From NCBI GenBank assembly GCA_965224715.1, contig OZ245054.1, positions 906,411 through 970,410 of the forward strand: a stretch of DNA of 64,000 nt, in the 5' to 3' direction. The notes under the pieces are model-generated. The model worked only from the letters and a program-made list of their open reading frames with translations, ran no database searches and was not told the origin of the DNA. Shown here in pieces: positions 6,845 through 55,803 of this stretch. The translations under genes and the position numbers were made by a program. The stretch is from Spirochaetota bacterium (GTDB lineage Bacteria > Spirochaetota > UBA12135 > COTS27 > CAXSBA01). How positions within the stretch are numbered: position 1 is the first letter of the stretch; every line of letters begins with the position of its first letter.

Positions 6845-8542
6845 ATGTTTAAGATTACTAAGTTAAAATTTGTTTTTTCACCTTTGATAGTATTACTTCA
6901 ATTCCTTTTTCTCTTTCCTTTAATAGTAGTAGCTTGGGGAAACCCTTTAATATTGGAGATCGAAAAAAAGATGAGTGCAGCATCGTTCCCTACTTATAGT
7001 AATACTCTTTCCTCTGATCCAAGATTTCTTGTAAAAAAGGATAAGAAAGATGTCCAACAAATGATCAAGATATCTTTTTTTCCAGAGAATTTAGAGTATC
7101 GGGAAGGTGATAGTTTTACTTTCCATGTAACCATTGAAAATAGCTCGACAAAAAAAGTTTTTTCCTATAAAAATTTTAATGAACCTTTCCAGCAGTTCTT
7201 ATTCACTATAAAAAAAGGGCATCAAGATTATTCCATTAAGCATTTGAATTATTATCGGTTTTTATATGATCGAAGTACTTATAGCGATAGTCATAGAGTT
7301 ATATCTTTAAATCCTCAAGAAAGTTATTCTAAGATGATATCCCTAGGAGCTTTTTTTAAATTTGATCGTCCTGGCTTTTATGAAATAACGGGGGAATTCT
7401 ATCCTTTGGGAATTTCAGAAAGTGATTATCGAATACCCATTCAACCTTTTGTTTTAAGGATTCATTCCCGTCAACAGTATTTGTCAGATATTAATAGTGA
7501 AAGTCTCTCTAAGAAAACTATTATAAAGCAAATACCTCAATTTATTGGGGGGCCAAATATATCAGATAATCAGATAGGTATTTCTAAATCAGTTAGAGAA
7601 GAGGGTAACAGGCGAATAACTCCTCTTTTCCCCGGTGAGGTAGTTCGAGATCATTTTAATCAAATTCGAACTCATGATTATGCTGGTTATTTAAAGAATT
7701 TAGAACTAGAGCAGCTTCTAATCAATAGTTATCAGTCCAGTGAGGTCTATTTACGTTATCAAGAAGCAAAGGTTTACGAAAAGGAAATTATTATTGAAGA
7801 TTTTAAAAAATTTCTGATTGAGAAAATCGACTATTCCTTAATAGACAGTATGGTTTTAAAGACTACTGTAATCAAAGATTCCGCAGTGGTGGAAGCTGTT
7901 ATGGCAGTAAGAGAACCATTTGAGGACTACCATCAAGGGATTGACCCTCACACTGGAGAGACTCAACCATTGTGGATTAAGGAATCGATAAACCGTTTAG
8001 AAAAATTTTATTATCTTACATTTGACTTAATGATGATTCCAGAGGTCGATAATAGTAAACCTTGGAAAATCATCAGCTATATAGTCCGATCTCTTTCAGT
8101 CGAACAGTATCAAAACTATAAAAGTCGTATTCCAAGCATTGGCAAGCCCGTATTGCCATTGATGTATTCTCAGGAACAACAGAATCAACAAATCGATGAT
8201 CGATTAAATCATGTAATTCATTTTGGTTATAATCAGTTTGTAATAGAACGAGGGTATTTACCTCAAATCGAAAAAGTTACCCAATTCTTGGTAGCTTATC
8301 CTGAATTACTGATTGAGCTTTATGGTCATACTGATGATAGAGGTGAGGAGGACTACAATTATGAATTATCCAAAGAACGGGTGGAATCGGTTGCTGACTA
8401 TTTAATAGCGGGTGGTGTAGAACTTAGTCGAATGCGGTTTTTTTATAAAGGGGAAAGTGAGCCTGTTACTTACGGTCAAACCGATGGCGATCGTCGGCTC
8501 AACCGAAGGGTTGAAATAAAAATTTTTAAACCCCAGTTTTAG
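6845..8542 (+). CDS. OmpA-family protein (signal peptide plus C-terminal OmpA peptidoglycan-binding domain)
   Basis: N-terminal hydrophobic signal. C-terminus YGHTDDRGEEDYNYELSKERVESVADYL...NRRVEIKI is the OmpA_C motif. Confidence 0.7.
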   Translation: MFKITKLKFVFSPLIVLLQFLFLFPLIVVAWGNPLILEIEKKMSAASFPTYSNTLSSDPRFLVKKDKKDVQQMIKISFFPENLEYREGDSFTFHVTIENSSTKKVFSYKNFNEPFQQFLFTIKKGHQDYSIKHLNYYRFLYDRSTYSDSHRVISLNPQESYSKMISLGAFFKFDRPGFYEITGEFYPLGISESDYRIPIQPFVLRIHSRQQYLSDINSESLSKKTIIKQIPQFIGGPNISDNQIGISKSVREEGNRRITPLFPGEVVRDHFNQIRTHDYAGYLKNLELEQLLINSYQSSEVYLRYQEAKVYEKEIIIEDFKKFLIEKIDYSLIDSMVLKTTVIKDSAVVEAVMAVREPFEDYHQGIDPHTGETQPLWIKESINRLEKFYYLTFDLMMIPEVDNSKPWKIISYIVRSLSVEQYQNYKSRIPSIGKPVLPLMYSQEQQNQQIDDRLNHVIHFGYNQFVIERGYLPQIEKVTQFLVAYPELLIELYGHTDDRGEEDYNYELSKERVESVADYLIAGGVELSRMRFFYKGESEPVTYGQTDGDRRLNRRVEIKIFKPQF

Positions 8543-35903: not shown

Positions 35904-37178
35904 TTACAGTTTTTGTTCCCAATTGATACCGTCTGAGGATTTCCATACATCATTATAGCGAGAGCTGCCATCAATTCCACCGATGAGGTATAGTTCATTG
36001 TTAAACACGACTACACTGTGAGCTTGTCTTCCGGAAAACTGAGCTTGGTTAGTCACTTCTGTCCAATCGATACCGTCTGAGGATTTCCATACATCGTTTT
36101 TGAAAGAGCCATCATTTCCAACGATGAGGTATAGTTCATTGTTAAACTTGACTACACTGTGATCGTATCTTCCGGTAAACTGAGCGTTACCAGTCACTTC
36201 TGTCCAATCGATACCGTCTGAGGATTTCCATACATCGTTATAGCGAGTGTTTCCGCCCCCAAATCCACCGATGAGGTATAGTTCATTGTTAAACTCTACT
36301 ACACGGTGACTGTTTCTTTTGGGAAACTGAGCGTTACCAGTCACTTCTGTCCAATCGATACCGTCTGAGGATTTCCATACATCGTTTCTGAAAGAGCCTC
36401 TGCTATGCCCACCGATGAGGTATAGTTCATTGTTAAACTCTACTACACTGGGAGTATTTCTTTCGGAAAACTTAGCTTGAGTGGTAGTCACTTCTGTCCA
36501 GGTAGCACCGTCCGATGATTTCCATATATCATTTAGTTGATTGAAGCCACTACTTTCTCCTCCAATGAGATATAGTTCATTGCTAAACTTGACTAAACTG
36601 TGAAGGTATCTTCCGGAAAACTGAGCATTACCAGTAACTTCTGTCCAGGTAGCACCGTCTGAGGATTTCCATACATCGTTTAGTAGATTGTTGCCGGTAT
36701 CTTGTCCTCCGATGAGGTAGAGTTCATCGTTAAGTTTTACTACACTGTGAGAGTATCTTGCGGAAAAATGATTTACTTTTATGGAAACAGTTCCTGTAAC
36801 CGACCCCTTGTATTGGGGATTATTTTCGGTTACGGTTGCGGTTATGGTGTAAGTATTGGAAAAACCCGGAGCATTGGTTGTTACTGTGATGGTGCCGTTT
36901 GTTAGATTCAGGGTAACTCCATTTGGTAAGGGAGGCTCTACACTGTAGCTGTAGTCGCTATTAGTAGTAGCATCAGAGGGAGTTATGTTGGTTAGCTTAG
37001 CTGTCCTGCTGACTTCGGTTCCGTAATTGACTTGGATATTCTGATAGCTGATGCTACCTGTTATTTGTGTTTTGCCATCTGAGGAATCCGTAGAATTCGT
37101 CTCGGTGCTGCATCCTAAAGTTAGTATAGTCAGGATGGCTGTGAGAGCGATTGTTAATGAGATTTTTATTTTTTTCAT
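35904..37178 (-). CDS. Kelch-repeat beta-propeller lipoprotein (N-terminal Ig-like segment plus 6 Kelch-like blades)
   Basis: MKKIKISLTIALTAILTILTLGCS lipobox, then ~47-aa units repeated 6 times: NNELYLIGG...NDVWKSSDG(A/I)(T/D)WTEVT. Confidence 0.6.
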   Translation of the reverse strand: MKKIKISLTIALTAILTILTLGCSTETNSTDSSDGKTQITGSISYQNIQVNYGTEVSRTAKLTNITPSDATTNSDYSYSVEPPLPNGVTLNLTNGTITVTTNAPGFSNTYTITATVTENNPQYKGSVTGTVSIKVNHFSARYSHSVVKLNDELYLIGGQDTGNNLLNDVWKSSDGATWTEVTGNAQFSGRYLHSLVKFSNELYLIGGESSGFNQLNDIWKSSDGATWTEVTTTQAKFSERNTPSVVEFNNELYLIGGHSRGSFRNDVWKSSDGIDWTEVTGNAQFPKRNSHRVVEFNNELYLIGGFGGGNTRYNDVWKSSDGIDWTEVTGNAQFTGRYDHSVVKFNNELYLIVGNDGSFKNDVWKSSDGIDWTEVTNQAQFSGRQAHSVVVFNNELYLIGGIDGSSRYNDVWKSSDGINWEQKL

Positions 37179-37418: not shown

Positions 37419-38801
37419 TTACAGTTTTTGTTCCCAGTCAATACCGTTTGAGGATTTCCATACATCGTTTAGTAGATTGTTGCCGGCCTCTTGTCCACCG
37501 ATGAGGTATAATTCATTATTAAACACGGTTGCACTGTGACCCCGTCTTGCGGAAAACTGAGCTTGACTAGTAACTTCTGTCCAATCGATACCGTCTGAGG
37601 ATTTCCATACATCATTTAGTCGATTGGTGCCATCAAATCCACCGATGAGGTATAGTTCATTATTAAACTCGACTACACTGTGATAGGATCTTTCGGAAAA
37701 CTTAGCTTGAGTGGTAGTCACTTCTGTCCAGGTAGCACTGTCTGAGGATTTCCATATATCGTTTTTGTAAGGGGTTGCGGATGTTCCGCCCTCATATCCA
37801 CCGAAGAGATATAGTTCATTGTTAAACACGACTACATTGTGACTACTTCTTGCGGAAAACTGAGCTTGATTAGTAACTTCTGTCCAAGTAGCACCGTCCG
37901 GTGATTTCCATACATCGTTTTTGTAAGTGATGCCACTATATCCACCGATGAGGTATAGTTCATTGTTAAACACGACTACATTGTGACTATTTCTTGCGGA
38001 AAACTGAGCTTGATTAGTAACTTCTGTCCAAGTAGCACCGTCCGGTGATTTCCATACATCGTTTAGTTGATTGTTGCCGGTATCTTGTCCTCCGATGAGG
38101 TATAGTTCATTATTAAACTTGGTTACATAAGCCCGTCTTGTGGGAAACTGAACTTGATCAGTAACTTTTGTCCAGGTAGCACCGTCCGGTGATTTCCACA
38201 CATCGTTTAGTAGATTGTCGCCGGCCTCTTGTCCTCCGATGAGGTATAATTCATTATTAAGTTCTACTACACTGTGGCCACCTCTTATAGAAAAATGATT
38301 TACTTTTATGGAAACAGTTCCTGTAACCGACCCCTTGTATTGAGGATCATTTTCGGTTACGGTTGCGGTTATGGTGTAAGTGTTGGAAAAACCCGGAGCA
38401 TTGTTTGCTACTGTGATGGTACCGTCTGATGGATTCAGGGTAACTCCATTTGGTAAGGTGGGCTCTACACTGTAGAGGTAGTCGCTATCGATAGCATTAG
38501 AGGGAGTCATATTGGTCAGCTTAGCAGTACTGCTGTCTGTGTTTCCGTAATCGACCTGGATATTCTGATAGCTGATGCTACCTGTTATTTGTGTTTTGTC
38601 AATTGAAGAGTCTGTTTCGGAGTTGCATCCTAAAGTTAATATAGTCAGGATGACCGTGAGAGTGATTGTCATGAGATATCTGAGCCGTGAGCTTTTGTTT
38701 AGATGGATTGAGGGAGAGGGGGGAGGTATTTTGCTTGAGGGAGCGATTAACTCTGGGGTTTTAGTTTGCTGTAATTTTAGTTTTGTTTTTAATTTTTTCA
38801 T
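37419..38801 (-). CDS. Kelch-repeat beta-propeller lipoprotein, paralog of 35904..37178, with a Pro-rich pre-lipobox leader
   Basis: MKKLKTKLKLQQTKTPELIAPSSKIPPPSPSIHLNKSSRLRYLMTITLTVILTILTLGCNS, then the same Ig-like segment (TYTITATVTENDPQYKGSVTGTVSIKVNHF) and 6 Kelch-like repeats. Confidence 0.6.
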   Translation of the reverse strand: MKKLKTKLKLQQTKTPELIAPSSKIPPPSPSIHLNKSSRLRYLMTITLTVILTILTLGCNSETDSSIDKTQITGSISYQNIQVDYGNTDSSTAKLTNMTPSNAIDSDYLYSVEPTLPNGVTLNPSDGTITVANNAPGFSNTYTITATVTENDPQYKGSVTGTVSIKVNHFSIRGGHSVVELNNELYLIGGQEAGDNLLNDVWKSPDGATWTKVTDQVQFPTRRAYVTKFNNELYLIGGQDTGNNQLNDVWKSPDGATWTEVTNQAQFSARNSHNVVVFNNELYLIGGYSGITYKNDVWKSPDGATWTEVTNQAQFSARSSHNVVVFNNELYLFGGYEGGTSATPYKNDIWKSSDSATWTEVTTTQAKFSERSYHSVVEFNNELYLIGGFDGTNRLNDVWKSSDGIDWTEVTSQAQFSARRGHSATVFNNELYLIGGQEAGNNLLNDVWKSSNGIDWEQKL

Positions 38802-47891: not shown

Positions 47892-48563
47892 ATGAAAAAA
47901 AAAATCTATGCCGCTTGGTTTTCCGGTAAGGAAAAATCGGCGGTTTTTTATGATAGTTGGGAAGCCTGTAAGCCTCAAGTGGAAGGGGTTTCCGGTATCC
48001 GTTATCGGGGTTTCCTAGACCGAAAACATGCTGAGGAATTTTTGGGAATCACCCCCTCCGATCACGGTCTGGATATTCCCGATGATACCTTGTTTCGAGA
48101 TAAAGAGGCTGAAAATACCCTCATTATTTATGTGGATGGCTCTTTTCAAGAGGGCACTCCTTATGCCGGATGGGCTTGGGTGGCTCTCACCCATCATAAT
48201 CAAAAAGATACCTTGGTTGGAGAAGATTATGGCATAACCGCAGAACCAGCCCTAAGCCGCAATATCGACGGGGAAATCACTGCAGTGTTGGAATCGGTGA
48301 AATGGGTGGAAAATTATCTGCCTACCCAAAAAAGTGATTGGCAAAAAACCAAGGTGGTTGTTCTCTATGACTATCAGGGAATAGAATCCTGGGCTATGGG
48401 GAAATGGAAAGCCAAAACCCTCATCAGTCAACATTACCAAAAAGAGATGATCCCTTACCGAAATTATATCCATTTCCACAAAGTTTCTGCTCATTCCGGT
48501 AAAAAATGGAATGAATACGTGGACCGACTGGCCAAGGAAGCAGTTTGGAAGTTGAAAGGATAG
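47892..48563 (+). CDS. rnhA: RNase H type 1 with N-terminal hybrid-binding (caulimovirus viroplasmin-like) domain
   Basis: HBD: KIYAAWFSGKEKSAVFYDSWEACKPQVEGVSGIRYRGFLDRKHAEEFL. RNase H core: IYVDGS...GEITAV...HKVSAHSGKKWNEYVDRLAKEA. Confidence 0.7.
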   Translation: MKKKIYAAWFSGKEKSAVFYDSWEACKPQVEGVSGIRYRGFLDRKHAEEFLGITPSDHGLDIPDDTLFRDKEAENTLIIYVDGSFQEGTPYAGWAWVALTHHNQKDTLVGEDYGITAEPALSRNIDGEITAVLESVKWVENYLPTQKSDWQKTKVVVLYDYQGIESWAMGKWKAKTLISQHYQKEMIPYRNYIHFHKVSAHSGKKWNEYVDRLAKEAVWKLKG

Positions 48564-48667
48564 TAAGGCGTTAATTCTGATGATCGAAAGACAAAGATTC
48601 CCTACTACTTTTAATAATAAAATTTGGAGAAAAACTGATACTTAGTTTATTTAATATTTACTAAAAC

Positions 48668-48752
48668 TAAAAAATGGGCAGTTAAGGATGCCCAGCCTTG
48701 CAGTATGAACTTTATTATAGTCCACTTACCAAAGATATTGTATCATTAATTT
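48668..48752 (-). ncRNA. Candidate tracrRNA (anti-repeat, linker, GC hairpin, U-tract)
   Basis: Minus strand reads AUGAUACAAUAUCUUUGGUAAGUGGACUAUAAU (complementary, with a bulge and G:U pairs, to the minus-sense repeat GTTATAGCCCACTTACCACC...). Then aaaguucauacugcaaggcu, then GGGCAuccuuaacUGCCC, then AUUUUUU. Confidence 0.55.
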
Positions 48753-48797
48753 ACAGTTGGATTAATAAATTTTTTTGAAATTTACAAAGGAGTCATT

Positions 48798-51700
48798 ATG
48801 AAAATTCTTGGAATTGATATGGGAATCACTTCTATTGGATGGGGCCTTATTCACTTTAATCCTCGGGAAAGAGAAGAAACTCGAATTATCGATGCCGGGG
48901 TAAGGATTTTTACCAAGGCTGAGCATCCAAAAGATGGATCTTCTCTGGCACTTCCTCGCAGAGAAGCCAGGGGAAGAAGACGAATATTAGTTAGAAAAAG
49001 GGAAAGGATGCAGAAAATCAAGGAGCTATTTATCGAGTATTTTGGTCTTGACCGTGAAAGTCTTTTTGAGATAGGGGATTACGGTTCTGGAACGATTTTT
49101 AAGGAGAAGAAGAAGAGTGATGTTTGGGAACTTAGAGATGCAGCCCTTGAAAGAAAATTAAGTCTAAAGGAGATGGCTAGAGTCCTGACCCATATCGCCA
49201 AACGCAGAGGTTATCATTCCAACAGTAAATCTGATGATTCAGAAAAAGACAAAGGTAAGGTTATTGAAGCGATTAAGGCTAATCAAGAAAATTTAAAAAA
49301 ATTAGGCTATTCTACACCGGGACAAATGATGTATCGGGAATCTCAAAAAAGTAGTTCCAAATCCGGTGATTATTTTTTACGAATTCGAAATACTACCAAT
49401 GATTATCGCCATGTAGTAACTCGGGAAATGCTCCGCGATGAAGTGGAAAAAATTTTTTCTGTTCAGAAAAAATTTTCCAAAAAATATTCTTCAGAGTTAA
49501 AGAACCGGTATTTGGATATAGCCTTTTATCAAAGACCACTCAAATCCAGCGAAGATATGGTAGGACCTTGTACTTTTGAGTCTGATGAAAAAAGGGCTCC
49601 TAAATACAGTTATAGTGCTGAACGATTTGTTTTGCTTGGCAAGATTATCAATACCATGATGATCGATGCCGGTGAAAATAATCGGTATAAAGAAAAGCGT
49701 CTCCTTGACTTCTGTCCGATGGATAAAATTCTTGAAGTCTTTCATGACCAGAAAGAGGTGAAATACCAAACTTTGAGGAAAAATTTAGAGATAGCAGATC
49801 ATCTCAAATTTAAAGATGTCAACTATAACGAGGATCCGGAGAATAAAAAGCTTCCCAAGGTAGATTCTTTTTTTAAAAAAGAGACCTGGTTAGAGAAAGA
49901 TCAAAAAGAACTCTTGACTTATAATGATAAGGAGAATCATTCACACTTTCATAAATGGATCCGAAAATATACGGACATTAGAAGGGCTTTGAAACTTGAT
50001 AAGAATTTTGAATTTATCTCTTTGAAAAGTGATTATAAGAAGCACCCTGAAAGCAAGGAATTCTACTCGCTAAAGGGGTATCATATTTTCAAAAAAGCAT
50101 TATCTTCAGAAGAATTTGAACAGTTTTTTCAAAATCTTTCGGTTTATAATGAGGTAGCTTATATCTTAACCGTAGAGCAAGGAATTAAAGAAATCCGAGA
50201 GCGTTTAGAGTCTATTCCTGGCATTTCCTCCTATATCGATAAGCTGGTCACCATTACGGGCTTTAAGGGATTTAATCATTTGTCCATTAAGGCGATGAAC
50301 AAACTTACCCCTCATCTTAGGGCTGGGAAACGATATGATGAGGCTGCTCGGGAGGTGTATGGACATCACTCGGTTAAAAAGGGAAATCAGGCTGAACTCC
50401 TGAGAATCTTGAATCGAGAAGAGAATTATCAACTTACCAACCCGGTGGTGAAACGGGCCTTCGCTCAATTTCGCAAGGTTGTTAATGCAATAGTCCGAAA
50501 GCATGGTCAGTTTGATAGCCTTCATATTGAACTAGCCCGCGAGCTAAAGCATAGTTACAAGCAACGGCAAGAAATCATACGGGGGCAAAATGAATTTAAA
50601 GGTAACAAGGATGCGGCTAAGGAAAAGTTTATAGAACTCTGTCGCAGAGAACCGGCTGCGAGTGAACTTCTAAAATTTCGTTTGTGGGAGGAACAAGAAG
50701 GGAAATCAGTTTATAGCGGTAAGCCTATCTCTATTAACGAATTGGCAAAAAACGATAAGGCTTTCGAAATTGATCATATTCTTCCTTATAGTCGAACTTT
50801 CGATAATACCCTCAATAACAAAGTTTTGGTGTTAGCAGAAGAGAATCAACATAAGAAAAACCGAACTCCCTTTGAATGGTTGGGAAAGAAAAATGAAGAC
50901 GATCCCTCCTGGCTGGAATTCAAAAGTCGATTATTCAGTTTTAAGAATTTGGGAAAAGCTAAGATTAATAAACTTTTCAATACCACCCTGTCTCAAAAAC
51001 ACGGGGAAGAATTCGATGAAGACGATCCGGAAAGTAATTTTTTCATCAATCGCAATCTCAACGATACTCAGTTCATGGCTAAGTTTATTAAAAATTTTGT
51101 GGAACAGAACCTTAAATTTGCCGATAACCCGGATGTCAAGCAAAAGGTCAAAGTGAGGAATGGGATGGTAACTTCTCATCTTGCCTATCTTTGGGGAATA
51201 GGTCGGGTGATCCAGGAAATCCTTCCTACTGAAAAAGAAGATCGAGATGGAAAAGATCCGACCAAGAAGATTCGAGATAATCACCTCCACCATGCCCTTG
51301 ATGCCCTGGTGATTGCCGCTACCACTCAAAGCGAAGTGCAGCGGATGTCCACTTATTCTGCCCGTTTTGAAGATTATCAGTTCAAAAGTAAGGAGGAGAA
51401 GGAGAAAGTTAAAAAACTGAGAACCTCCACGCCCTTCAATGACGAGGAACTGAAGCGGAAACTCTCGAATATTTTTCCTTCCTATGCTCCCCGTCGTAAG
51501 GTGACCGGAGCCGCCCATGAAGAAACCCTTTACAGTGGAAAAACTTATCAGTCAAAAAACAAATCCAAATTGGTCGGAGCTAGCCTTAAGTACCCGGTAA
51601 AACTCAACCACGGAAAGACCTTGGCTAAAAAAAGTTCCATGCCTCGTATCGATCTCTTCCGTCATGTGGAAAACAAAAAATATTTCATCGTCCCCATCTA

Positions 51701-52097
51701 TGTAGCTGACTTTGTCAAAAAACAACTGCCCAGTCATGCGATTATTGGCGGAAAAGATAAGGAAGGAAACCCCAAACCCTGGTTAGAGATGGATGATAGC
51801 TATGAGTTCATCACTTCCATCTATAAGAACGATCTCATCGAAGTGAAGACAAAGAAGGAAACAGTAAGAGGCTACTTTGATAGCGCTGACAGTAGTACCG
51901 GTACTATCTCTTTAAAATCTCCTCAAACCGGTCATCCTTTTAGGAAAGGTATGGGAATTCAAGGAGCTTTACAAGTTCGTAAATTCGAGGTCTCTCCTCT
52001 TGGTGAAATCCATGAGGTTTCCCTCCCTCAAGATCGGGTGGGAACCCTCCATGAGTTGAGAAGGATCAAGAAAGAAAAAGCAATGGATAAAAACTAA
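48798..52097 (+). CDS. cas9: Cas9 (type II-C size class, 1099 aa)
   Basis: RuvC-I MKILGIDMGITSIGWG. Arg-rich bridge helix RREARGRRRILVRKRER. HNH EIDHILPYSRTFDNTLNNKVLV...NRTPFEW. RuvC-III HHALDALVIAATT. RBS aaaggag lies 6 nt upstream. Confidence 0.95.
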   Translation: MKILGIDMGITSIGWGLIHFNPREREETRIIDAGVRIFTKAEHPKDGSSLALPRREARGRRRILVRKRERMQKIKELFIEYFGLDRESLFEIGDYGSGTIFKEKKKSDVWELRDAALERKLSLKEMARVLTHIAKRRGYHSNSKSDDSEKDKGKVIEAIKANQENLKKLGYSTPGQMMYRESQKSSSKSGDYFLRIRNTTNDYRHVVTREMLRDEVEKIFSVQKKFSKKYSSELKNRYLDIAFYQRPLKSSEDMVGPCTFESDEKRAPKYSYSAERFVLLGKIINTMMIDAGENNRYKEKRLLDFCPMDKILEVFHDQKEVKYQTLRKNLEIADHLKFKDVNYNEDPENKKLPKVDSFFKKETWLEKDQKELLTYNDKENHSHFHKWIRKYTDIRRALKLDKNFEFISLKSDYKKHPESKEFYSLKGYHIFKKALSSEEFEQFFQNLSVYNEVAYILTVEQGIKEIRERLESIPGISSYIDKLVTITGFKGFNHLSIKAMNKLTPHLRAGKRYDEAAREVYGHHSVKKGNQAELLRILNREENYQLTNPVVKRAFAQFRKVVNAIVRKHGQFDSLHIELARELKHSYKQRQEIIRGQNEFKGNKDAAKEKFIELCRREPAASELLKFRLWEEQEGKSVYSGKPISINELAKNDKAFEIDHILPYSRTFDNTLNNKVLVLAEENQHKKNRTPFEWLGKKNEDDPSWLEFKSRLFSFKNLGKAKINKLFNTTLSQKHGEEFDEDDPESNFFINRNLNDTQFMAKFIKNFVEQNLKFADNPDVKQKVKVRNGMVTSHLAYLWGIGRVIQEILPTEKEDRDGKDPTKKIRDNHLHHALDALVIAATTQSEVQRMSTYSARFEDYQFKSKEEKEKVKKLRTSTPFNDEELKRKLSNIFPSYAPRRKVTGAAHEETLYSGKTYQSKNKSKLVGASLKYPVKLNHGKTLAKKSSMPRIDLFRHVENKKYFIVPIYVADFVKKQLPSHAIIGGKDKEGNPKPWLEMDDSYEFITSIYKNDLIEVKTKKETVRGYFDSADSSTGTISLKSPQTGHPFRKGMGIQGALQVRKFEVSPLGEIHEVSLPQDRVGTLHELRRIKKEKAMDKN

Positions 52098-52165: not shown

Positions 52166-53077
52166 TTGATTATGGCTTGGCGATCTGTTTCTATCACCCA
52201 TCCCGCTCATCTTTCGGTGTCTTCGGGTCGTCTCAAGATCGCCCAGGAAGAAACCCATTTCCTCCCTCTCGATGATCTTAATGCTATCATCTTGAGTCAT
52301 CCCCGGATATCTCTTACCGCTCCCCTCCTGGGACGGTTGGCAGATCACAATATTGCGGTGTTTAGTACCGATGAACGGCATCTCCCTAATGGGGTTTTTT
52401 ACTCCTTTCAGGGTCATAGTCGGCAGACCAAGATGATCAAGGAGCAGATCGGTTGGTCATTACCTTTTAAAAAAAGGATGCAGCAGAAAATCATAATCAA
52501 CAAAATCAGAAATCAGGGAGAGGTTTTAAATTACCTCTATCCCGAGACTCGTCCGGGAGAAAAGCTGTTTCCTTTAATCAAGGATGTTGATTCCGGTGAT
52601 CGCCGCAATCGAGAGTCGCAGGCTGCCAGTCAATATTTTCGAATCTTATTTCATGCCTTTAACCGTCGAGCAGACAACCTCCACAATGCGGCTCTCAATT
52701 ACGGCTATTCCTTAGTCAGGGGATTTACCGCCCGGGCAGTTGTAGCCCATGGTTTTATTCCCTGTTTGGGACTTTTTCATGATAGTGAGCTTAACTCGTT
52801 TAATTTAGCCGATGATCTCATGGAGCCTTACCGTCCCCTCGTGGATGAGAGAATATTCCAATTACTGGGAAAAGATACCCGAAAAGTATCCGACAGTGAA
52901 CTTAGCCCGGAATTAAAAAAATCTATAGCGGAGATTATTTTCACTCCCTGTCGATTGCGGGGGGAGGAATTACAGCTTCATCACAGCCTGGATGTTCTCG
53001 CTCGAAGTCTTAGCAGTGCCTCCCGGCATAATGACTACAAACGTTTTTTAGAAGTGGAGTTGATTTTATCTTCATGA
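52166..53077 (+). CDS. cas1: Cas1 (type II). TTG start in the ORF track; alternative ATG at 52172
   Basis: NAALNYGYSLVRGFTARAVVAHGFIPCLGLFHDSELNSFNLADDLMEPYRPLVD matches the type II Cas1 core. 4-nt overlap with cas2. Confidence 0.9.
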   Translation: MIMAWRSVSITHPAHLSVSSGRLKIAQEETHFLPLDDLNAIILSHPRISLTAPLLGRLADHNIAVFSTDERHLPNGVFYSFQGHSRQTKMIKEQIGWSLPFKKRMQQKIIINKIRNQGEVLNYLYPETRPGEKLFPLIKDVDSGDRRNRESQAASQYFRILFHAFNRRADNLHNAALNYGYSLVRGFTARAVVAHGFIPCLGLFHDSELNSFNLADDLMEPYRPLVDERIFQLLGKDTRKVSDSELSPELKKSIAEIIFTPCRLRGEELQLHHSLDVLARSLSSASRHNDYKRFLEVELILSS

Positions 53078-53400
53078 AAGAGGAGGATCGGTTTTTGCGT
53101 CTTTTTGTTTTTTTCGATTTACCGGTAGTGAGCGAACAGGAAAGAAGCCGAGCCGGTCGTTTCCGGCGACTACTCATTAAAAATGGTTTTTTTATGATAC
53201 AGTTCTCCATTTATTGTCGAATCTGTCGAGGACAGCAGAATGTGGATAAATATCGCAAACGGATCAAATCCTATCTCCCCCCTTACGGCAATATTCGCCT
53301 CATGCAGGTAACAGAGAAACAGTTTGAGAATATGGAAATTTTACTAGGAAAATTTAAAAAAGAAGAAAAATTTAAAGATAATCAACTTCTCCTTTTTTAA
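53074..53400 (+). CDS. cas2: Cas2
   Basis: LRLFVFFDLPVVSEQERSRAGRFRRLLIKNGFFMIQFSIY is a typical Cas2 N-terminal beta-alpha fold signature. 108 aa. Confidence 0.85.
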   Translation: MKEEDRFLRLFVFFDLPVVSEQERSRAGRFRRLLIKNGFFMIQFSIYCRICRGQQNVDKYRKRIKSYLPPYGNIRLMQVTEKQFENMEILLGKFKKEEKFKDNQLLLF

Positions 53401-53521
53401 AAAATTCAGAAAAAATTTGACTCAAGTCACAGTTTTAGCCCCTCCTCAATGTATTTTTTTGATCAAAAAAACCTTGATTTCCTAAGTTTTTCCATAGAAA
53501 ATCAGGGTTTTTTCGAGACGT

Positions 53522-55404
53522 ATTATAACACAGAAAAGGTGGTAAGTGGGCTATAACGGGGCAGATGACAAATACGGAAATATCGATATTATAACACAGA
53601 AAAGGTGGTAAGTGGGCTATAACACTGCGGGTTTTAGCTACATAGAATTAATTATTATAACACAGAAAAGGTGGTAAGTGGGCTATAACTTGAACCCCAT
53701 TATTCAGAATTTAAATAATATTATAACACAGAAAAGGTGGTAAGTGGGCTATAACGGTTATCTTGAATTCACCTATTCCTCAGATATTATAACACAGAAA
53801 AGGTGGTAAGTGGGCTATAACACTAAAGCTCAAGGGGGGTTCAAGGTAACAATTATAACACAGAAAAGGTGGTAAGTGGGCTATAACCCTGTACCTGTGT
53901 TCTTTGGTGAGGTTGCAATTATAACACAGAAAAGGTGGTAAGTGGGCTATAACATCGATTACAAACTCTTGTGCCGCCTCAAGATTATAACACAGAAAAG
54001 GTGGTAAGTGGGCTATAACGATTTAAGGAAGAAGAAGGCAGAAGCTGACATTATAACACAGAAAAGGTGGTAAGTGGGCTATAACTAGTCATAGCCACGC
54101 CTGCCACAAGGTCTCATTATAACACAGAAAAGGTGGTAAGTGGGCTATAACTTCATAGATAGTCCAATGGAAAGTGTCGATATTATAACACAGAAAAGGT
54201 GGTAAGTGGGCTATAACGATGACACCAGAGCAACAAATAAAAAAGTTATTATAACACAGAAAAGGTGGTAAGTGGGCTATAACGAATAAATACCCTTTAT
54301 GCTTATAACTCTAATTATAACACAGAAAAGGTGGTAAGTGGGCTATAACTGATACTATGAACGAAGATAGGAAAATAAAGATTATAACACAGAAAAGGTG
54401 GTAAGTGGGCTATAACGCCTCTGATTTAATATTCTTAAACGCCTCAATTATAACACAGAAAAGGTGGTAAGTGGGCTATAACCGATATATATCGCAGAAG
54501 TTACCTGTAGACATTATAACACAGAAAAGGTGGTAAGTGGGCTATAACTATTGTACTAAACTGCTACTTTTTAATTTTATTATAACACAGAAAAGGTGGT
54601 AAGTGGGCTATAACAAAGGTAATTTAAGTAGTAAGAGAGTAGCTATTATAACACAGAAAAGGTGGTAAGTGGGCTATAACTCGCACCCGTGTTAGTATTC
54701 GTGGGTGTGAATTATAACACAGAAAAGGTGGTAAGTGGGCTATAACGGCAAAAAAAAACACACCTTAAGATTATTATTATAACACAGAAAAGGTGGTAAG
54801 TGGGCTATAACCTTCGTCAAGGAGCAGTACTGACACCGATTATTATAACACAGAAAAGGTGGTAAGTGGGCTATAACATCTTGAGTTCACATACTCGGCT
54901 GAGTATGATTATAACACAGAAAAGGTGGTAAGTGGGCTATAACTCAGGGTTTGTGATGATGAACGGATCTTTAATTATAACACAGAAAAGGTGGTAAGTG
55001 GGCTATAACATATTAATAGAATACACGCCAGACTGTCAGATTATAACACAGAAAAGGTGGTAAGTGGGCTATAACCTTTGTCCCCATCGATAAGAGGTTT
55101 GTCTATTATAACACAGAAAAGGTGGTAAGTGGGCTATAACACCCCATACCCTCCCCCACCAGTTGGGGAGATTATAACACAGAAAAGGTGGTAAGTGGGC
55201 TATAACAGGTACATTGGTCTTGTGAAAGCTATCGGGATTATAACACAGAAAAGGTGGTAAGTGGGCTATAACCATTAAGTCGATGTCATGAGTTGAAAGA
55301 ACATTATAACACAGAAAAGGTGGTAAGTGGGCTATAACTCAGAGGTTACGAGTTGGTTACGAGTTGTCATTATAACACAGAAAAGGTGGTAAGTGGGCTA
55401 TAAC
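53522..55404 (-). CRISPR. CRISPR array: 29 identical 36-bp repeats and 28 spacers (29-31 bp, mostly 30). The crRNA sense is inferred to be the minus strand (repeat 5'-GTTATAGCCCACTTACCACCTTTTCTGTGTTATAAT-3')
   Basis: Repeat starts at 53522, 53588, ... 55369 (period 66). Plus-strand repeat is ATTATAACACAGAAAAGGTGGTAAGTGGGCTATAAC. The minus-sense repeat begins GTT.TAG like other type II repeats and ends in the extended -10 TGTTATAAT. Confidence 0.95.
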
Positions 55405-55424
55405 TCGGAAGGCTTATAAAAAAT

Positions 55425-55475
55425 GTCTGCGTTTATCTGCGGTAAATAAAATCGTATCCGCAGATAAACGCAGAC
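55425..55475 (-). terminator. Strong hairpin (18-bp perfect stem, 15-nt loop) followed on the minus strand by a T6 tract; likely terminator of the minus-strand ABC-transporter operon, shielding the array
   Basis: gtctgcgtttatctgcgg / ccgcagataaacgcagac. The plus strand is preceded by ttataaaaaat, which reads aTTTTTTataa on the minus strand after the stem. Confidence 0.5.
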
Positions 55476-55690
55476 GGCGGATGGTGAGATAATATACCCT
55501 TGAAGATAAAACTTTTACCTAGACTCCTTCTTAACTCTGGATGAGGGTTTGCCATTGACATCTAACATTTCTTTTTTCATAATTTTATTGCCTTTCTATA
55601 GTTATTTTTTATATTGATCTTGACTTCATTAACAGATGACAGGGGTATTCTATCAATATTTTCTTCAAAGTATCTCCAAGAGTACTATTT

Positions 55691-55726
55691 CTATAAGGTT
55701 ATAAATAACACGGAAGAGGTGGTAAA
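55691..55726. repeat. Degenerate CRISPR repeat remnant ~290 bp beyond the array
   Basis: ataaATAACACgGAAgAGGTGGTAAaTaGGttttat vs ATAACACAGAAAAGGTGGTAAGTGGGCTATAAC. Confidence 0.4.
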
Positions 55727-55803
55727 TAGGTTTTATTATTTTCTCATTATTTGTTATTTCATAAAGCATTTAAAACTTAAAGAATGTGATTGAGTACTTT
55801 TTG

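Follow-up and report, generated by a model that had tools for sequence, protein, structure and literature searches.

A predicted tracrRNA gene upstream of cas9 in a type II-C CRISPR-Cas locus of an uncultured Spirochaetota bacterium

Introduction

The repeats of type II-C CRISPR (clustered regularly interspaced short palindromic repeats)-Cas systems carry their own promoters, and the arrays of Neisseria and Campylobacter are read in the direction opposite to that of the cas operon (PMC3737331, PMC12080349). The oldest repeat, which is often mutated, stands at the start of the transcribed array, and many II-C arrays are insulated by an upstream terminator (PMC3737331, PMC12080349). Mutated "extra" repeats are also common in II-C arrays (PMC12080349). 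The trans-activating CRISPR RNAs (tracrRNAs) of Neisseria meningitidis and Campylobacter jejuni, with sequences as quoted in PMC8038530, are compared here with a type II-C locus in a 64-kb stretch of contig OZ245054.1 from a Spirochaetota bacterium. This stretch as a whole is referred to as the window. A short minus-strand segment just upstream of cas9, at 48669 to 48730, is very probably the tracrRNA gene of this locus.

A preliminary description of the window had proposed an 85-nucleotide (nt) tracrRNA on the minus strand between an RNase H-type gene and cas9, and the flanking genes are those that it named. The proposal was evaluated with the in silico criteria for calling tracrRNAs of Chylinski et al. 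2013 (PMC3737331). Relatives of the locus are designated by labels (L001, L002, L003, etc.).

Results

The tracrRNA assignment is well supported, because pairing with the repeat, a terminator, polarity, conservation together with cas9, covariation with the repeat, and the layout of the tail all point to it. The predicted RNA is intergenic, lying in the 234-bp gap between the end of the RNase H gene (48563) and the start of cas9 (48798), and 67 nt separate its predicted 5' end, G48730, from the start codon of cas9. This location beside cas9, the validated pairing, and the terminator on the same strand support what the preliminary description had proposed, and a plausible -10 box lies upstream.

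The minus-sense repeat of the array reads GUUAUAGCCCACUUACCACCUUUUCUGUGUUAUAAU. Its nt 1 to 18 (GUUAUAGCCCACUUACCA) form 16 Watson-Crick pairs with the anti-repeat, together with a G1·U pair and a C8·A mismatch, so that the anti-repeat pairs with the 5' part of the repeat in CRISPR RNA (crRNA) sense, as expected of a tracrRNA. In terms of sequence identity, the minus strand from 48731 to 48714 reads TGGTAAGTGGACTATAAT where the repeat reads TGGTAAGTGGGCTATAAC, a match at 16 of 18 positions. Over the whole window, 0.03 repeat matches with 2 mismatches in 18 are expected by chance, and the one at 48731 to 48714 is the sole such match outside the array. Pairing ends after 18 nt, where C19 and C20 face U residues. 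The pairing had been described as 20 nt long with one C:A mismatch, one G:U pair, and a bulge; the mismatch and the G·U pair are present, but the paired stretch comprises 18 contiguous positions and requires no bulge. The duplex of anti-repeat and repeat has an energy of -23.4 kcal/mol, compared to -8.2 ± 2.5 for shuffled anti-repeats. Cofolding with the repeat, which had been suggested as a check, also yielded a stable duplex, with the minus-sense repeat (-39.0) a far better partner than the plus-sense repeat (-24.4).

The tail that follows the anti-repeat is 45 nt long and consists of AA, the stem-loop AGU-ucau-ACU, GCAAGGC, a hairpin, and U6. The G+C-rich hairpin UGGGCA-uccuuaac-UGCCCA (48694 to 48675) begins 20 nt past the anti-repeat and is followed directly by U6 (48674 to 48669). 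It is the sole terminator-like site in the interval from 48300 to 49100, which was covered by the terminator and two-hexamer promoter scan. The linker of 20 nt, the hairpin, and U6 are thus all found where the preliminary description had placed them, although the linker, whose length was given correctly, holds the conserved II-C module of AA, stem-loop 1, and GCAAGG. The predicted terminator would serve the minus-strand transcript only, because the plus strand has no T-run after the stem. The hairpin was also considered as a possible terminator for the RNase H gene, but this role was rejected given the lack of a plus-strand T-run and the finding that in L002 the element goes with cas9 and not with the RNase H gene.

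The order AAU, AA, stem-loop 1, GCA(A/G)GG, and hairpin(s) is common to eight other related loci, among them L002, L007, L085, L088, L090, and L096. It also matches the order of the tail in Neisseria and Campylobacter tracrRNAs, in line with the earlier claim of an anti-repeat, linker, and terminator-hairpin layout typical of II-C tracrRNAs. Stem-loop 1 is 3 bp in the window, 2 bp in L001, 5 to 6 bp in L002, and 3 to 7 bp in other II-C tracrRNAs, and its arms vary yet stay complementary (AGU/ACU, AGAUAU/GUAUCU, GUGG/CCAC, GGAG/CUCC, GGGA/UCCC, and GGC/GCC). The counterpart of the junction motif is GCA(A/G)GG in related II-C tracrRNAs, GCAACG in Neisseria, and GCGGGG in Campylobacter. A covariance model (R1) built from the window, L001, and two L002 copies found exactly one copy in the window (98.7 bits); the scores of the training sequences (99, 93, 82, and 81 bits) are high by construction.

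Table 1. Coordinates of predicted tracrRNA features, cas genes, array, and neighboring elements in the window
Feature	Coordinates	Strand	Details
Predicted tracrRNA, short form	48669..48730	-	~62 nt; GGUAAGUGGACUAUAAUAAAGUUCAUACUGCAAGGCUGGGCAUCCUUAACUGCCCAUUUUUU; 5' end inferred
Anti-repeat	48714..48731	-	Pairs with nt 1-18 of minus-sense repeat
Stem-loop 1, vestigial	48702..48711	-	AGU-ucau-ACU, 3 bp
Junction motif GCAAGGC	48695..48701	-	Conserved
Intrinsic terminator	48669..48694	-	6-bp stem UGGGCA/UGCCCA, 8-nt loop, U6
Candidate extended -10 box TGATACAAT	48737..48745	-	Ends 6 nt before G48730
Earlier candidate -10 box TGTAAATT	48748..48755	-	TATAAATT in L001; no counterpart in L002
RNase H gene, upstream neighbor of cas9	47892..48563		RNase H and RNase H1 N-terminal (hybrid-binding) domains
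cas9	48798..52097	+	1099 aa; HNH and RuvC_III domains (Pfam)
cas1	52166..53077	+	Pfam
cas2	53074..53400	+	Pfam
Hairpin between A-run and T-run	53463..53516		Between cas2 and array; conserved in L001
CRISPR array	53522..55404	- (crRNA sense)	29 identical 36-nt repeats, 28 spacers
Hairpin, 18-bp perfect, then AUUUUUU	55418..55475	-	Free energy, -32.4 kcal/mol; z score, -8.35
Degenerate terminal ("extra") repeat	55702..55737	+	~300 bp from array; found in duplex scan

The sequence of the array supports a minus-strand sense for the crRNAs because each of the 29 minus-sense repeats terminates in TGTTATAAT, a perfect extended -10 box (TGnTATAAT), a degenerate oldest repeat is found at the cas-distal end of the array, and a minus-strand terminator is predicted upstream. 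The hairpin that represents this terminator (55475 to 55418) sits just upstream of the first repeat in the crRNA direction and is likely to insulate the array. With minus-sense crRNAs, the candidate RNA would have the polarity of the crRNAs and a 5' anti-repeat, as a tracrRNA requires; the shared polarity claimed earlier thus agrees with an independent assessment from the box, the oldest repeat, and the terminator. The spacers are 29 to 31 nt long. The repeats of L002 and L003 end in TGATATAAT, and the minus-sense repeat of the window begins GUUAUAGC, where that of Neisseria begins GUUGUAGC. The hairpin on the other side of the array (53463 to 53516; z scores, -3.0 and -3.7) resembles a bidirectional terminator, which would end both the cas operon and the minus-strand array transcripts.

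Relatives of the window Cas9 with more than 45% identity are rare, with three (L001, L002, and L003) found among 5.8 billion proteins. A scan of metagenomes detected Cas9 matches of ≤41% identity and two short N-terminal fragments (54 to 64%) but no new tracrRNA orthologs, and the best Cas9 match in a scan of representative genomes (41%), a set without the species of the window itself, was in a Spirochaetota metagenome-assembled genome (MAG) with an orphan cas9. In L001, which is syntenic and has a Cas9 92% identical to that of the window, the segment that spans the -10 box through the hairpin is identical at 71 of 72 positions, the single difference being a one-base deletion in stem-loop 1. 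Third codon positions of cas9 are 86% identical between the two, and the remaining intergenic region is 66% identical. The element is under purifying selection, with a stronger constraint than that on the silent sites of cas9, as the 71/72 identity compared to 86% indicates.

In L002, the Cas9 is ~50% identical and the other neighboring genes differ, but the element is again found upstream of cas9 and on the same relative strand. It reads GGUAAGCGGGUACUAUAAU-AAAG...CUGCAGGGCUGGGCAUCCUCUAAACUGCCCA, and two stretches, CUGCA(A/G)GGCUGGGCAUCCU and AACUGCCCA, are nearly unchanged from the window. A T-to-C change in the paired part of the L002 repeat (GGTAAGTGGG to GGTAAGCGGG) is mirrored by the same change in the anti-repeat, and the L002 tracrRNA duplex has an energy of -25.1 kcal/mol with its own repeat versus -19.7 with others. 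Both lineages retain an irregularity that follows base pair 7, as a C·A mismatch in the window and as a 2-nt bulge in L002. The contig of L003, the third relative (Cas9 48% identical), begins 142 nt upstream of cas9, where the anti-repeat should start.

Several other features of the relatives were observed. The cas-distal terminal repeat of L003 (5565 to 5600) carries exactly the two substitutions (…GGACTATAAT) that separate the window anti-repeat from the repeat, and the contig begins (L003 1 to 30) exactly at the expected anti-repeat; possible causes are gene conversion involving the anti-repeat and the terminal repeat, or an assembly that broke off at this repeat-like sequence. In L002, a 418-bp tandem duplication (7112 to 7961; 98% identical) doubles the tracrRNA gene and a fragment of a SpoU methylase gene upstream of cas9; the resulting pair of tracrRNA genes have R1 scores of 81 and 82 bits. 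In L004 (8001 to 11600; the same locus as L005, Spirochaetota MAG OZ255710.1), the cas9 gene is 41% identical, and cas1, cas2, the array, and the upstream tracrRNA are all missing. One isolated repeat-like sequence, TTGGTAAGTAGGCTATAAC, lies ~255 nt past the end of cas9, which gives the locus the appearance of a decayed or orphan one from the same repeat family. An Ilyobacter MAG has a low-scoring R1 match (22.5 bits) just upstream of its cas9 (L082 5861 to 5921, plus strand). The sequence, ...UACAAUAAAGGUAUUAUCCUGUAAGGCU..., indicates that the AAUAAAG, stem-loop, and G(C/U)AAGGC module is also present in a II-C lineage far removed from that of the window.

The putative tracrRNA promoter is more likely TGATACAAT than TGTAAATT, because the position of TGATACAAT is conserved in L001 and L002 while TGTAAATT decays. 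At the position of TGATACAAT, the sequence of L001 is identical, and L002 has TATAAT/TGTATAAT at an equal distance from its GG. The extended -10 box of the preliminary description, TGTAAATT, does exist (48755 to 48748), but its TG is lost in L001 and it has no counterpart in L002. The conserved box predicts a transcript of ~62 nt (48730 to 48669) in place of the 85 nt given earlier. The predicted 5' end is near G48730 and could lie up to ~25 nt further upstream.

The short form, with an anti-repeat of 17 to 18 nt, appears somewhat more probable than a long form, because distal complementarity is nonsignificant in all lineages and is broken without compensation in L001. The long form, which is possible although doubtful, would be the same tracrRNA with a length of ~75 to 90 nt and a start set by TGTAAATT or by a more distant upstream box, TATTAAT. 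Its anti-repeat, interrupted but full length, would reach the 3' half of the repeat as well, and the resulting duplex would be a substrate for RNase III. A 5' extension does add an in-register 8-bp helix between repeat nt 26 to 33 and 48746 to 48739, lowering the duplex energy from -23.4 to -29.5 kcal/mol; an extended form of the L002 RNA can pair over most of the repeat (34 pairs, 7 of them G·U), and relatives in the Campylobacterota have full-length anti-repeats at the same position. However, the idea that the distal half of a full-length anti-repeat still pairs found no statistical support, because its complementarity did not significantly exceed that of shuffles or of AT-matched genomic 24-mers (P values of 0.065 in the window, 0.64 in L001, and 0.10 in L002). 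A substitution in the L001 repeat breaks the distal helix, so that the energy gain drops to -1.6 kcal/mol, and the helix overlaps the best-conserved -10 candidate, TGATACAAT. One of the boxes that would yield the extension, TGTAAATT, loses its TG in L001.

The locus is a type II-C CRISPR-Cas locus because it has cas9, cas1, and cas2 only, without csn2 or cas4; no csn2, cas4, or further cas gene was found from 47.9 to 55.8 kb by Pfam assignments and the map of open reading frames. The catalytic motifs of Cas9 are kept (the RuvC-I Asp in GIDMGITS and the HNH motif EIDHILPYS). The nearest solved Cas9 structures, those of Neisseria, Geobacillus, and Campylobacter (E values of 1e-129 to 1e-94), are all type II-C, and the nearest named relatives of the protein are II-C Cas9s of the Campylobacterota (~40% identity). 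An RNase H1-type gene adjoins cas9 in L001 but not in L002, and the adjacency is therefore probably coincidental. L098 (PurH 70% identical) was considered as a guide to the borders of the island but was discarded, as it has no cas locus and synteny breaks there. Elsewhere in the window, tandem repeats of 144 to 147 nt form two blocks (35919 to 36771 and 37443 to 38276; ~78% matching, 5.7 to 5.9 copies each) that are unrelated to the CRISPR locus.

Discussion

In the proposed mechanism, a small minus-strand RNA would be transcribed divergently from cas9, starting near G48730 from the extended -10 box TGATACAAT (48745 to 48737) and ending at the hairpin and U6 (48694 to 48669). The 5' 17 to 18 nt of this tracrRNA would anneal to nt 1 to 18 of the repeat-derived portion of every crRNA, and the crRNAs would be minus-strand transcripts that probably start from the TGTTATAAT box in every repeat. 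The tail (AA, vestigial stem-loop 1, GCAAGG, and terminal hairpin) would provide the Cas9-binding scaffold, and the crRNA:tracrRNA duplex would load into Cas9 and guide DNA cleavage. We infer transcription, the exact 5' end, processing by RNase III, and Cas9 binding and activity from the sequence.

Several observations weigh against the assignment as a tracrRNA gene. No promoter was detected between 48300 and 49100 in a strict two-hexamer scan, three overlapping AT-rich -10 candidates exist, and the 5' end is a guess made from the letters. No protospacer was found in phages and viral contigs that would confirm the guide polarity via a protospacer-adjacent motif. BLAST of the whole array against phages yielded nothing meaningful, and the lone match from four 20-mer scans of viral contigs, which spanned the first 20 of 30 nt only, was treated as chance. 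The free RNA folds not notably better than shuffles (z scores of -1.4 to -1.9), as might be expected of an RNA that acts as part of a duplex. Covariation cannot prove the stem of the terminator, which is invariant across the three known lineages, and stem-loop 1 has just 3 bp (2 bp in L001). Rfam yielded no match over 48.6 to 48.8 kb at E values up to 10 and none at the gathering score; Rfam does not cover this lineage. The search for anti-repeats spans 64 kb of a 2.1-Mb contig, and a second anti-repeat elsewhere is possible.

A more speculative view, to which only a low probability can be given, is that the RNA represents a naturally minimized tracrRNA of ~62 nt, in which the anti-repeat has been cut to 17 to 18 nt, the promoter occupies the former distal half, stem-loop 1 is vestigial, and a single hairpin serves as both scaffold and terminator. 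If so, the duplex may be too short for RNase III, and crRNAs would mature via the repeat-embedded promoters only. In related tails, the GG of GCA(A/G)GG closes a helix with CC(U) located 3' of the inner hairpin (AACG...CGUU in Neisseria, AGG...CCU in L007, and GGG...CCC in Campylobacter-like tails). In the window, a nested helix between AAGG and the 3' U-tract is one option; it is predicted by RNAalifold, and L002 has one A-U to G-C double change. Alternatively, AAGG may pair with CCUU in the terminator loop (48699 to 48696 with 48687 to 48684), a fold that would constitute an H-type pseudoknot; the L002 sequence permits either pairing. In a minimized tracrRNA, a pseudoknot formed by the GG of GCAAGG may replace the nested closing helix of Neisseria-like tails.

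It seems highly improbable that the element is a nonfunctional relic, that is, an inverted and decayed repeat beside a hairpin, with the real tracrRNA elsewhere or the system defective. Degenerate repeats do occur outside the array (55702 to 55737), the Spirochaetota relative L004 has a solitary repeat fragment by an orphan cas9, and the inspection was limited to 64 kb of the genome. However, a relic would not be expected to be more constrained than the silent sites of cas9, to travel with cas9 into the other genomic context of L002, or to covary with the repeat, and the tail is homologous to the published tracrRNA tails of Neisseria and Campylobacter. Furthermore, the 29 identical repeats and the retained catalytic motifs of Cas9 suggest that the system is active.

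The chances are equally slim that the RNA is mainly an antisense or autoregulatory RNA for cas9 with guide loading not its main role, acting either by interference with the divergent cas9 promoter or as a natural single guide like the long tracrRNA of Streptococcus pyogenes. With the gene on the opposite strand, 53 to 130 nt ahead of the start codon of cas9, the two promoters must overlap or abut. Yet ordinary II-C relatives commonly show this divergent arrangement upstream of cas9, and the standard role of a tracrRNA explains every conserved feature.

A second repeat-derived sequence was identified when every 40-nt window on both strands of the 64 kb was paired against the repeat. The candidate tracrRNA ranked second (-29.5 kcal/mol), behind the sequence at 55702 to 55737 on the plus strand (-36.1 kcal/mol), so the statement in the preliminary description that the candidate is the only extended match outside the array does not quite hold. 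The L001 ortholog of the 55702 to 55737 sequence is a plain terminal repeat of the array, and the sequence in the window is best regarded as a mutated extra repeat of the kind typical of II-C arrays, not as a rival tracrRNA. The continuous helix that it forms involves repeat nt 12 to 32, and the first 11 nt of the repeat, the part retained by Cas9, pair only patchily. AT-rich, featureless DNA follows, with no AA, stem-loop, and GCAAGG module and no terminator, and the R1 model gives no match. Thus, although it has the lowest duplex energy in the window and a sigma-70-like TTGACA-17-CATAAT site ~120 nt upstream on the plus strand, the possibility that it is the true anti-repeat of a tracrRNA encoded beside the array, as in some II-C loci, can be given almost no weight, considering the missing scaffold and terminator, the orthology with the L001 repeat, and the frequency of mutated extra repeats in II-C arrays (PMC12080349).

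The ~300 bp between the array and the ancestral terminal repeat (within 55405 to 55737) are missing in L001. This insert holds the minus-strand hairpin at 55475 to 55418 and the near-consensus sigma-70-like site (TTGACA-17-CATAAT; 55555 to 55583, plus strand), which faces the degenerate repeat.

The assignment of 48669 to 48730 as a tracrRNA gene would supply the RNA component for a rare Cas9 lineage in a deep-branching uncultured bacterium. A single guide RNA can be designed directly from it, with repeat nt 1 to 17 (GUUAUAGCCCACUUACC) joined by the tetraloop GAAA to 48730 to 48669 (GGUAAGUGGACUAUAAUAAAGUUCAUACUGCAAGGCUGGGCAUCCUUAACUGCCCAUUUUUU). With a 45-nt tail and an 18-nt anti-repeat, the predicted RNA is a clear natural example of a small II-C scaffold and is relevant to compact guide design. 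Its value is practical and not conceptual: this is an ordinary annotation that describes no new kind of system and leaves CRISPR-Cas9 biology unchanged.

Among the known systems, N. meningitidis shares many features with the locus, and its Cas9 is among the closest solved structures (E value, ~1e-128). Both repeats are 36 nt long, start with GUU(A/G)UAGC, and carry an extended -10 box at the 3' end (TGCTACAAT in N. meningitidis, TGTTATAAT in the window), and the N. meningitidis array is also transcribed opposite to the cas operon (PMC3737331). In both, a G1·U pair closes the duplex at the end of the anti-repeat (...CUA(C/U)AAU), AA follows, and the tail has the order stem-loop 1, GCAA, and terminal hairpin. 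However, the N. meningitidis anti-repeat covers far more of the repeat, whereas significant pairing in the window extends over 18 nt only. Stem-loop 1 has a 15-nt loop and the terminal hairpin has 12 bp in N. meningitidis, compared to stems of 3 bp and 6 bp in the window, and the tail is ~69 nt rather than 45 nt.

The tail of the C. jejuni tracrRNA is more similar in size (49 nt versus 45 nt). Both are compact and have AAU-AAAG, a short stem-loop 1 (AGAGU/ACUCU in C. jejuni and AGU/ACU in the window), and CUGC(G/A)(G/A)GG. In the Campylobacterota relatives of the window Cas9, the tracrRNAs are likewise divergent and upstream of cas9. The Campylobacter tracrRNA tail forms a triple helix in the crystal structure. 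C. jejuni differs from the window in its long, perfectly paired anti-repeat and in the length of its Cas9 (984 versus 1099 aa).

The type II-A system of S. pyogenes, the source of the founding tracrRNA, resembles the window in the pairing of anti-repeat and repeat, the irregularity a few pairs into the duplex, the 3' hairpins, and the intrinsic terminator. It has no sequence or Rfam-level similarity to the window tracrRNA; its array is transcribed from a leader in the direction of the cas genes, and its tail has three hairpins.

Finally, the element at 48.7 kb can be compared with the mutated extra or terminal repeats of II-C arrays (PMC12080349), which are also repeat-derived sequences outside the array or at its edge. 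In contrast to these, the candidate is inverted relative to the array, keeps the 5' (Cas9-bound) part of the repeat, and has a conserved scaffold and terminator behind it. The inversion and the conserved tail and terminator argue against a plain degenerate or orphan repeat and set the predicted tracrRNA apart from such sequences.

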